Part shown: piece after piece, positions 32,264 through 33,928 of the stretch
How positions within the stretch are numbered: the first letter of the stretch is position 1
How the letters are laid out: each line of letters opens with the position of its first letter
Assembly (NCBI GenBank): GCA_965224245.1
Contig: OZ245046.1
Location: 1,728,001-1,792,000, forward strand
DNA: 64,000 nt
Direction of reading: 5' to 3'
Origin: Candidatus Eiseniibacteriota bacterium
GTDB lineage: Bacteria; Eisenbacteria; RBG-16-71-46; CAZAMP01
Translations under genes and position numbers: made by a program
The notes under the pieces: generated by a model
Database searches by the model: none
What the model was told of the DNA's origin: nothing
Seen by the model: the letters and a program-made list of their open reading frames with translations, nothing else

Positions 32264-33928
32264 TTACGCCGCTCTCCTTCCCCGCTTCGCGTCAACCGGA
32301 CCCCGCTCCTCGAGGACCCGCGCCACCTCCCGGTGGCTCTCCCGCCTCGCGTCGTCGAGAGGAGTGCCTCCCCACCGGTCGCGAGCTCCCGGATCCACAC
32401 CGGCCGCCAGCAGATACTCGACCACGTGCACGTGCCCTTCGGATGCGGCCAGGTGAAGAGCCGTCCGGCCATCGTAGTCGCCCTCGCCGAGGGACACGCC
32501 ACGCGCCGCGAGCTGCTGGACGCCCCGCAGGTCTCCCCGGCTCGCCGCCCAGCACAGGTCGACGACGGCGCCGACCCGCCTCTCGTCGCGCCGCTGCCGG
32601 GGATCGATCTTGTCGTGCCGGCCACCCAGCAGGTTGTCGTAGTTGTGAAAGTTGAAGGTGCGGGTCAGCTCGCGGCAGAAAGCGATGCCACGCACGCTGT
32701 TCCCGTTCTCGTCCAGACGGGGCGACCAGACGCAGAGCCCCATCACGTTGGGGACCACCAGGAGGATTCCGCCCGACACGCCGCTCTTCGCTGGAAGCCC
32801 GACCGAGAACGCCCACTGCCCCGAGAAGTCGTACATGCCGCAGGAGTACATGAGCGACAGGACCTTCTGAACCGTGTCCGGCCTCAGCACCCGCTCACCC
32901 GTCACCGGACACACGCCGCCGCCGGCCAGCGTCCCGGCGACGATCGCGAGCGAGTCGGCGGTCATCTCGATCGAGCAGGACTGGAAGTAGAGCTCCAGTG
33001 TCTCGACTAGGTTCGTGCCCTCGGGGAACGCCCTGTTCTCTCGCATCGAGTACGCCAGCGCGAAGTTGCGGTCCGCTGTCTCGCGCTCCGAGAGGTAGGT
33101 GGAGGTGCTGAACCCCGGCTTCGTCCCTCCCGCCAGCCTTCTCCAGACGTCCATGATGTGCTCGAACCGGTCCGCCATCGGCTTCTTCCGTTGGACCAGT
33201 GAGGTCGACATGATGCCGCCCGCATTGATCAGCGGATTGTGAGGACGGCCGTCCTTCCCCAGCCAGAGCTCGTTGAACGCGCGTCCGCTGGGCTCGCAGC
33301 CCATGTGCCGGTGGACTTCCTCCTCCCCGTGCTCCTCCAGCGCGGCGACGTAGTTGATGGTCTTGCAGATCGACTGGATGCAGAAGTCCACGTTCGCGTC
33401 CCCGATGGAATGCCGTTGACCGTCCACCGTGCACACCGAGACCCCGTACCGATCCGGGTCCACCCGTTCGAGCTGCGGGATGTAGTTCGCCAGGCTTCCG
33501 CTGCGATTCTCCATCGTCCCGGCGTGGATCCGATCCAGCTCCGTCGAGAACGAGGCGAACTCCGGCAGAACCGTCTGCCCGGTCAGCACTCGCTCGATGA
33601 GAAGCGGATGACCGTTGGCGATCCGCTCGAACTGGTCGAACGAGATCCGCTCGCCGGGATCGAGCTCCGCCAGCAGCCGCGCGACCTCGGCCAGGCGCGG
33701 GTCGTCCATGCGGATTCCGGCCTCCCGCAGCACGCTGGGAAGCGCGTCGTGTGCGATCGTGTCCTCCCCGCCGATCCGAAGGGCGTCGAAGAGGGCCCGG
33801 GAGCGGGCGTCTTCGCCCGGGGCGCCGGAAACTCTCGTTCGCGCTCCGGCACCCGGGACGACGGGCGCGATTGCCGCGCCCGTCCGCCCGTTTCGGTCCC
33901 TTCGCGGGCTCTTGGTCTTCATCGCCAT
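32264..33928 (-). CDS. glsA: Glutaminase with N-terminal EF-hand-like domain and C-terminal ankyrin repeats (animal GLS-like)
   Basis: YIPQL, QSICK (SxxK), [65 protein letters not shown]. Start 33928 or 33922, overlapping the amt stop. Confidence 0.95.
   Translation of the reverse strand: [554 protein letters not shown]

Follow-up and report, generated by a model that had tools for sequence, protein, structure and literature searches.

A three-domain, kidney-type glutaminase encoded beside type II glutamine synthetase and an ammonium transporter in an Eisenbacteria genome

Animal kidney-type glutaminase (KGA, encoded by GLS) and the related GLS2 carry an EF-hand-like amino-terminal domain, a catalytic domain and ankyrin (ANK) repeats in a single chain, a multidomain build that reportedly derives from bacterial ancestors. 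Glutamine cycles, formed by a glutamine synthetase and a glutaminase, have been described in Rhizobium etli as well as in the liver and brain of mammals; synthetases of type I (GSI) are adenylylated, whereas those of type II (GSII) are not. Here we analyse a glutaminase gene, gls, found in a stretch of 64,000 nucleotides from a Candidatus Eiseniibacteriota genome (contig OZ245046.1, positions 1,728,001 to 1,792,000; assembly GCA_965224245.1), referred to below as the window. The gene encodes a KGA-type glutaminase and stands last in a putative glnII–amt–gls operon, behind the genes for type II glutamine synthetase (glnII) and for an ammonium transporter (amt), and the explanation that we consider probable overall is that the three products form a glutamine cycle or an overflow valve.

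The sections of a structural study consulted here (Feng et al. 2024, PMC10912226) describe inorganic phosphate at the dimer–dimer interface of the human enzyme in contact with K320, R387, Y394 and K398, and a K320A variant that is constitutively active without phosphate, the exchange of lysine for alanine making the isoform GAC phosphate-independent. According to the same sections, the activation loop is positioned by an R317–E325 salt bridge and an F318–Y249 lock, and the ANK repeats lower activity in both KGA and GLS2. For bacterial glutaminases, excerpts of a review (PMC13142944), which do not state the enzymes compared, report a pre-stabilised allosteric site with no need of phosphate and the lack of a conserved filament interface.

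The gls gene occupies positions 32264..33922 on the minus strand and encodes 552 residues followed by a stop codon. An alternative ATG at 33928 would give 554 residues, the frame used for residue numbering throughout; translation of 32264–33928 yields this chain as a single open frame with the ANK repeats at its end. The frame remains open further upstream, from 34267 to 32264, and its upstream part overlaps the end of the ammonium-transporter gene, which places the real start near 33928. The junction of the two genes reads GGAGG-TGA-TGGCG-ATG, with the amt stop codon TGA at 33928–33930 sharing its A with the first gls ATG. The ribosome-binding site GGAGG (33931..33935, minus strand) is embedded in the final codons of amt, 8 nucleotides upstream of the second ATG, at 33922, as against 2 nucleotides upstream of the first. 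Owing to this spacing, and because the database's own gene call for the protein (P0002) has 552 residues, translation probably begins at the second ATG.

At its amino terminus the protein has a basic, low-complexity tail (approximately residues 3–44; 33797..33922, minus strand, as are all segments of the gene), predicted to be disordered and without a hydrophobic signal peptide. It is followed by a four-helix, EF-hand-like domain (residues 45–122; 33563..33796), which scores 30.9 bits with Pfam EF-hand_14 (PF17959; cut-off 23.7; E = 3.5e-7), and by the catalytic domain (residues 144–430; 32639..33499), to which the Pfam glutaminase model PF04960 aligns in full (model positions 1–286 of 286; 373.5 bits against a cut-off of 27; E = 8.1e-112). 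The NCBIfam model of glutaminase A, TIGR03814, likewise scores above its threshold (310 bits against 255.4). The activation loop, defined by alignment to human KGA, spans residues 215–225 (33254..33286; human G315–E325). The chain closes with ANK repeats (residues 458–541; 32306..32557), recognized by Ank_2 (E = 2.2e-13) and Ank_4 (E = 1.7e-13), which are collinear with the ANK region of KGA and align to its residues 550–642.

A model from AlphaFold2, based on an alignment of 45 sequences, has a mean predicted local distance difference test score (pLDDT) of 86.5 and a predicted template modelling (TM) score of 0.81. Residues 1–35 are disordered in the model (pLDDT 35–55 over residues 1–40), helices are formed at residues 41–115 (pLDDT 86–96), and confidence dips at residues 211–220 (pLDDT 66). 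No hydrophobic signal peptide was seen, by eye, at any of 81 amino termini (the window protein and 80 homologues), those of the homologues being variable and hydrophilic in our own reading of the sequences, and the gls protein is predicted from its amino terminus to be cytoplasmic. A periplasmic glutaminase feeding Amt, an idea prompted by an amino-terminal RR pair, was ruled out by the same inspection.

The likeness to the animal enzymes extends over nearly the entire chain. Searches of PDB sequences with phmmer align residues 49–541 to residues 10–505 of human KGA (5uqe_A, E = 1e-158; a second KGA entry, 8gwr_B, has E = 2.7e-158) and also retrieve GLS2 (8szl_A, E = 2.8e-145), each alignment forming one collinear stretch that takes in the three domains and the two linkers; bacterial single-domain enzymes of solved structure (3agd, 2pby, 1u60 and 1mki) score 176–230 bits. 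In Foldseek comparisons of the model with the PDB, the top match is again KGA (8gwr_B, E = 8.8e-45, TM score by target 0.87, 501 columns, 47% identity), with 5uqe_D at the same TM score by target and the top KGA pair at 46–47% identity over 501–507 columns. GLS2 comes next, followed by many GAC chains, for which the TM scores of 0.94–0.97 and root-mean-square deviations of 1.6–1.9 Å refer to a superposition of the amino-terminal domain and the catalytic part. Identity to seven non-human animal glutaminases is 19–25% in the amino-terminal domain, 52–59% in the catalytic domain and 39–51% in the ANK repeats. In the catalytic domain, E. coli GlsA1 and GlsA2 are 38–39% identical to the gls protein, and single-domain GlsA proteins overall 35–39%. 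The first-pass annotation, made from the letters of the DNA, had proposed this three-part collinearity with kidney-type GLS and quoted segments as closely matching the human protein; both proposals agree with the domain matches, alignments and catalytic identities given above, and all the quoted strings are present. Its estimate of about 310 residues for a typical GlsA agrees with the E. coli genes glsA (933 nucleotides) and glsB (927 nucleotides).

Proteins of this build are widespread in bacteria. A search of 5.8 billion proteins returned 6,224 matches among 8,000 candidates scored; within the best 120 of these 6,224, EF-hand_14, glutaminase and ANK matches occur together in 107 by our own count, the other 13 having glutaminase and ANK. 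Matches that carry a name are called ‘glutaminase A’ and come from Planctomycetota, Phycisphaerales, Nannocystis, Myxococcales, Acidobacteriota and Thiodiazotropha, and this kind of bacterial three-domain glutaminase appears to be already known. In contigs representing one genome per species, a relative is encoded in 202 of 419 candidate stretches. The best 80 of these 202, kept as related loci, encode proteins with 46–64% identity over nearly the full length and carry 12 phylum-level labels by record title. Many top matches (P0003, P0005, P0007, P0023, P0049 and P0122–P0140) are 850–1,340 residues long and contain two or three complete glutaminase units in tandem, each with ANK repeats; several of these tandem proteins come from eukaryotic transcriptomes (eukprot).

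A catalytic-domain tree of 102 rows and 317 columns was obtained by a quick IQ-TREE search under LG+C20. Its animal rows, identified by name, are Meloidogyne, Pristionchus, Penaeus, Drosophila, Salvelinus, Podarcis GLS2 and Anser, and its single-domain outgroup consists of E. coli glsA and glsB and eight glutaminases of the window's own phylum; the set excludes three partial loci and one locus from an unpublished genome (L084, genome G015). The 10 single-domain rows are split from the 92 three-domain, animal and protist rows with a Shimodaira–Hasegawa-like approximate likelihood ratio (SH-aLRT) support of 98, and of 99 in a 38-row tree under LG+G4. The animals form one clade (SH-aLRT 100) and four protist units another (97), both nested among bacterial three-domain proteins on a weak backbone (84–85). 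The gls protein is not sister to the animals: it falls in a clade of nine rows (96) with three Gemmatimonadota, one Planctomycetota, two unclassified, one Polyangiales and one Gammaproteobacteria metagenome-assembled genome (MAG). Approximately unbiased (AU) tests were run on the 38-row subset under LG+G4. A constraint uniting the gls protein with all 10 single-domain rows, in effect a question about the outgroup's point of attachment, gave a p-AU of 0.678, which does not reject it, and scored 10.6 log-likelihood units (lnL) better than the quick free search; the attachment of the outgroup inside the three-domain group is therefore not fixed, and the window branch is one candidate for it.

The gls protein, intact and ordinary, belongs to a widespread family of bacterial glutaminases in which the animal enzymes are included. 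The ‘animal’ glutaminase build is a widespread bacterial invention, of which animal GLS is one branch. Of the interpretation first attached to the gene, the collinearity with and closeness to animal GLS stand, and its special bearing on the origin of animal GLS does not: at least 80 species-level bacterial loci, spread over 12 phylum labels, encode this build, and the gls protein lies elsewhere in the tree than the animals.

Within the window's own phylum the three-domain form is patchy. Glutaminases are encoded in 13 of the 121 genomes sampled, including the window's own and the unpublished G015; the other 11, all analysed, are single-domain enzymes 32–37% identical to the window core, and a genome of the same family as the window's (G043) has no glutaminase. 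The three-domain form was found in the window's genome alone among the 121, a distribution that fits either transfer between bacteria or repeated loss.

The two genes that precede gls lie on the same strand. The ammonium transporter gene, amt (33928..35208, minus strand), encodes 426 residues that match PF00909 (E = 1.1e-113) and TIGR00836 (432.9 bits against a cut-off of 343.3). The type II glutamine synthetase gene, glnII (35283..36374, minus strand), encodes 363 residues with PF03951 and PF00120 over their cut-offs, and has AAGGAG upstream of its ATG. The glnII and amt genes are 74 nucleotides apart, and 5 nucleotides separate the amt stop from the gls start; no glutamine transporter gene is present in the operon. 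The best PDB match of the window GlnII is 4bax (E = 6.5e-126), mammalian glutamine synthetases having E values of about 1e-108. With the NF041605 GlnII model it scores 463.5 bits, below the cut-off of 500, and is accordingly classed here as a putative type II synthetase by similarity, outside the NCBI equivalog threshold.

The nitrogen complement of the window's genome, which is 97.4% complete, comprises one glutaminase match, one Amt match, a type III glutamine synthetase (GSIII) and three ELFV-type dehydrogenases; no GSI was found above cut-off. A single, weak P-II match (41.6 bits; C1:6200628-6200921) lies 4.4 Mb from the operon (about C1:1760000-1764400), and no P-II domain occurs in the glnII–amt–gls cluster. 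The glutamate synthase (GOGAT) domain Glu_syn_central was not found in this genome. It is present in 2 of the 121 phylum genomes, both matches weak or partial, compared with 14 of 14 control genomes, and the phylum seems to be without canonical glutamate synthase. A module compensating for the loss of GOGAT was ruled out: the absence is phylum-wide, 48 of 80 carrier genomes (19 of 40 and 29 of 40) have the domain, and no association was seen.

The association of gls with glnII and amt recurs in other genomes. The window's neighbouring genes were compared by tblastn with up to 6 kb on each side of the glutaminase in the 80 related loci; 30 of these have less than 3 kb on at least one side, so that the neighbour counts are lower bounds. 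A GlnII homologue is found near the glutaminase in 34 of the 80 loci (on the same strand in 32), Amt in 41, both in 24, and one or both in 51. The genes occur in the orders glnII–amt–gls, glnII–gls–amt, amt–gls–glnII, gls–glnII–amt, glnII–gls and gls–glnII. Preservation of linkage through several rearrangements is what selection for co-expression would produce. Members of the GlnII family (E of 1e-40 or better) are encoded in 39 of 80 carrier genomes (24 of 40 and 15 of 40) and in none of 14 control genomes, and in 34 of those 39 carriers GlnII is within 6 kb of the glutaminase; in the phylum sample, a search with the window GlnII finds the window's own genome, 1 of 121.

A GlnII tree of 34 rows repeats several clades of the glutaminase tree, some of which mix phylum labels. 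Clades common to both include the window with L050, L057, L003, L014, L013 and L018; L031 with L038 and L058; a Nannocystis group; and a Parvularculaceae group. The closest GlnII (85% identity) and the closest glutaminase (72%) lie on metagenome contigs of equal size, 27,625 nucleotides, and five more such pairs were seen. Sequences from MAGs labelled Rickettsiales and Margulisbacteria (L031, L038 and L058) cluster tightly in both trees, as do those from MAGs labelled Gammaproteobacteria, Planctomycetota and Gemmatimonadota (L003 and L014 among them); either the module moves between phyla or some of the contigs are mis-binned. In the open-access literature, subscription journals being outside the scope of the search, no description of glnII–amt–gls linkage was found, and the accessible part of a review that covers both glnII and glutaminase mentions none. 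That this glutaminase recurs beside GlnII and Amt suggests a unit of nitrogen control in bacteria that has yet to be studied, and cultured carriers such as Nannocystis or Kordiimonas would allow it to be tested.

Human residue numbers were mapped through the phmmer alignment to KGA and equal the window residue plus 100 in the core. The catalytic and substrate-binding set, which we take to be human Y249, S286, K289, N335, E381, N388, Y414, Y466 and V484, is kept at all nine positions (window Y149, S186, K189, N235, E281, N288, Y314, Y366 and V384). The same nine residues are identical in 80–81 of 81 bacterial three-domain rows, and their conservation in both the window protein and its family argues for selection on catalysis. 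The activation loop is equally long in animal, protist and bacterial three-domain proteins and longer by two residues in single-domain enzymes; that of the window protein differs from the loop of vertebrate GLS by R317A, K320E, F322W and E325K. At the human positions discussed above, the window protein has F318 and Y249, A317 and K325 in place of the R317–E325 salt-bridge pair, and E320, R387, S394 and N398 at the phosphate ligands K320, R387, Y394 and K398, one of the four vertebrate ligands thus being kept; E397 is also kept. The pocket for BPTES and CB-839, presumably formed by F318, L321, F322, L323 and Y394, reads F, L, W, L and S, with three of five residues kept. Tryptophan at 322 (mostly threonine in bacterial rows) and serine at 394 (mostly phenylalanine) are local oddities of this protein. 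The gls protein agrees with KGA/GLS in every structural feature compared and departs from the vertebrate enzymes at the determinants of phosphate activation.

Because of K320E, Y394S and K398N, phosphate activation of the vertebrate type is not expected for the gls protein, and BPTES-class inhibitors are expected to bind poorly because of F322W, Y394S and K320E. Position 320 (window residue 220) is a glutamate in 69 of the 81 bacterial three-domain rows. Four of the seven animal rows also have glutamate (Drosophila, Penaeus and two nematodes, the invertebrates by our own reading), the bird and fish rows have lysine, and the lizard GLS2 row has threonine. Since glutamate is shared by bacteria and the invertebrate rows, the lysine looks late, and dependence on phosphate through this lysine may have arisen late, possibly in vertebrates. 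The gls protein, or another bacterial enzyme like it, would offer a natural test of ancestral glutaminase regulation; the single gls gene matters little, and the operon and the pattern at position 320 are the parts worth experiment.

In the mechanism that we favour, the gls protein would hydrolyse glutamine to glutamate and ammonium. It would assemble as a tetramer like KGA and would probably be controlled through the flexible activation loop and auto-inhibition by the ANK repeats, as in KGA and GLS2. The glutaminase would oppose the co-encoded GlnII around the only ammonium channel detected in the genome, the three proteins together setting the balance of glutamine, glutamate and ammonium. 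The outcome would be a regulated glutamine cycle or an overflow valve, serving a glutamine synthetase that is not controlled by adenylylation. This reading is favoured because the synthetase is of type II, without adenylylation, and the genome shows neither GSI nor an amt-linked P-II gene. The accessory domains are the obvious candidates for avoiding futile cycling, because ANK repeats lower the activity of KGA and GLS2 in the sections of PMC10912226 consulted.

Several points weigh against this account. A synthetase and a glutaminase co-expressed in one compartment look futile. Co-transcription of glnII, amt and gls is suggested by their spacing; two weak terminator-like hairpins lie on the minus strand inside amt (35173–35161 and 34941–34926), and a terminator scan of the region gave 5 sites against 1.8 ± 1.6 in shuffles. 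Among sequencing runs, the stretch was found in four DNA runs of a single study and in no RNA run. No sigma-70-like promoter or regulator site was found. Upstream of glnII, searches for a sigma-54 promoter (no match within 2 mismatches in the leader), a riboswitch or other Rfam element, and a motif common to the leaders of seven clade members all gave nothing. Neither GlnII nor Amt was found within the flanks covered in 29 of the 80 loci, so the module is frequent and not obligatory, and related loci partly share ancestry, so that the counts overstate independent support. The placement of the window protein in its nine-row clade is not secure, and the predictions on phosphate and inhibitors are drawn from residue analogy.

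The main alternative is a purely catabolic glutaminase that makes imported glutamine or peptides available as sources of carbon and nitrogen, with surplus ammonia leaving through Amt and with GlnII as a mere neighbour because one nitrogen regulator governs all three genes, so that no cycle operates. By record title, carriers include many proteolytic or predatory heterotrophs and host-associated lineages (Myxococcota, Bdellovibrionota, Rickettsiales and Coxiellaceae); the three ELFV-type dehydrogenases could take glutamate onward, and in 17 of the 80 loci Amt without GlnII stands beside the glutaminase. A shared regulon, however, needs no physical linkage, yet GlnII is linked in 34 of the 39 carriers that encode it, and through several gene orders. 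The clades common to the GlnII and glutaminase trees and the lack of a glutamine transporter gene in the operon also speak against it, and we regard the catabolic explanation as unlikely, though still to be taken seriously.

An extension of the cycle reading is that glnII–amt–gls is a self-contained mobile glutamine-cycle module of fixed stoichiometry, and that eukaryotes inherited GSII and GLS jointly from such a module. The linkage in 34 of 80 loci across phyla and the clades shared by the two trees allow this, as does the finding that, for GlnII and glutaminase alike, the window's proteins resemble those of animals about as closely as they resemble distant bacterial ones. We consider joint inheritance improbable.

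It is less probable still, and in our judgement very unlikely, that the gls protein is a non-catalytic sensor or pseudo-enzyme whose glutaminase fold binds glutamine and controls Amt or GlnII. Such a role would suit the ANK repeats, the tight translational coupling to amt, in the position that GlnK takes in amtB–glnK operons, and the lack of a P-II gene in the operon; it is opposed by the nine catalytic and substrate residues, which are intact here and in 80–81 of 81 bacterial family rows.

Two further accounts concern the origin of the gene, and both are barely credible. In the first, an ordinary GlsA gained its amino-terminal domain and ANK repeats independently and resembles animal GLS by convergence; although ANK repeats are promiscuous modules and, of the 12 other phylum-sample genomes with a glutaminase, the 11 analysed have single-domain enzymes, KGA aligns collinearly across the three domains and the linkers between them, identity to animal proteins is 39–51% in the ANK repeats and 52–59% in the catalytic domain, against 35–39% to single-domain enzymes, an SH-aLRT of 98 supports the split of the single-domain rows, and a clade of the gls protein with its own phylum's single-domain glutaminases, the kind of placement that the first-pass annotation had named as refuting its reading, was 111.7 lnL worse and rejected (p-AU 4e-05). 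In the second, a recent transfer from a eukaryote into the bacterium, the high similarity to animal GLS and the restriction of both the three-domain form and GlnII to the window's genome among the 121 are outweighed by bacterial nearest relatives (57–72% identity, against about 47% to human KGA), by animals and protists in clades of their own apart from the window protein, by a G+C content of 0.68 at 32001–34000 that matches the flanks (0.67–0.69; about 68% in the whole window) and by the position of the gene inside a bacterial operon with an overlapping ribosome-binding site, and exchange of the gene among bacteria, or its loss, would account for the patchy distribution equally well.

Divergently from glnII and upstream of it, on the plus strand at 36533..37144, lies a gene for an extracytoplasmic function (ECF) sigma factor (PF07638, E = 5e-48). 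An ECF sigma homologue flanks the module in five related loci of the window's glutaminase clade (L013, L014, L018, L050 and L057), which could reflect a regulatory pairing or shared ancestry. Taken with the glutaminase clade, this common flanking gene may indicate relatives among the Gemmatimonadota. About 70 nucleotides upstream of the glnII start, a terminator-like hairpin with a T-rich run (36445–36468, minus strand) has no Rfam match, and no counterpart was seen in six related leaders; an attenuator is one possibility, and the end of a transcript from upstream is another. Downstream, a gene for a Ser/Thr kinase with TPR repeats converges on gls, and a long Ser/Thr kinase is found near the module in the window and in L013, L017 and L050. 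Seven large Ser/Thr kinase genes lie in the 64-kb window (17902–20550, 20627–23620, 29389–32226, 40620–43409, 52062–54836, 54876–57602 and 59941–63669), fused to TPR, PD40 β-propeller or FGE-sulfatase-like domains, a striking density of eukaryote-like kinases. The first 65 residues of the kinase-containing frame downstream of the operon (29389–29590, plus strand) match the integrase core domain rve_3 weakly (E = 3.7e-4; 20.6 bits, below the threshold of 26.5), and this segment may be a transposase remnant.

Among known systems, the closest counterparts of the gls protein are the bacterial three-domain ‘glutaminase A’ proteins of Planctomycetota, Myxococcota (including Nannocystis), Acidobacteriota, Gemmatimonadota, Cyanobacteriota and others, which are 46–72% identical to it and have the same Pfam set. 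Many of them share a glnII and/or amt neighbourhood, and nothing essential sets them apart. Human KGA (GLS; 5uqe and 8gwr) and GLS2 (8szl) have the same three domains in the same order, and the nine active-site and substrate residues, the size of the activation loop, F318, R387 and E397 are kept between them and the gls protein. The latter differs from them in having a short, basic, disordered tail in place of a mitochondrial presequence, in the exchanges K320E, Y394S, K398N, R317A, E325K and F322W, and in being encoded in an operon with GlnII and Amt. The single-domain glutaminases (E. coli GlsA1/YbaS, 1u60, and GlsA2; B. subtilis YbgJ, 1mki; the salt-tolerant Micrococcus enzyme, 3agd) share the fold, the nine residues and the reaction. 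They lack the amino-terminal domain and the ANK repeats, have a counterpart of the activation loop that is two residues longer, and are separated by a long, well-supported branch.

At the level of the operon, amtB–glnK offers a parallel, in that an ammonium channel gene is likewise translationally coupled to a downstream gene for a cytoplasmic protein of nitrogen metabolism. Here, however, that downstream gene would encode an enzyme and not a P-II protein, and no P-II gene adjoins amt. The mammalian glutamine cycle employs the same enzyme types, GSII and a glutaminase of the KGA/GLS2 type, both acting on a single pool. There, different cell types or organelles house the two enzymes, whereas the window has their genes together in one operon and their products would share a compartment.

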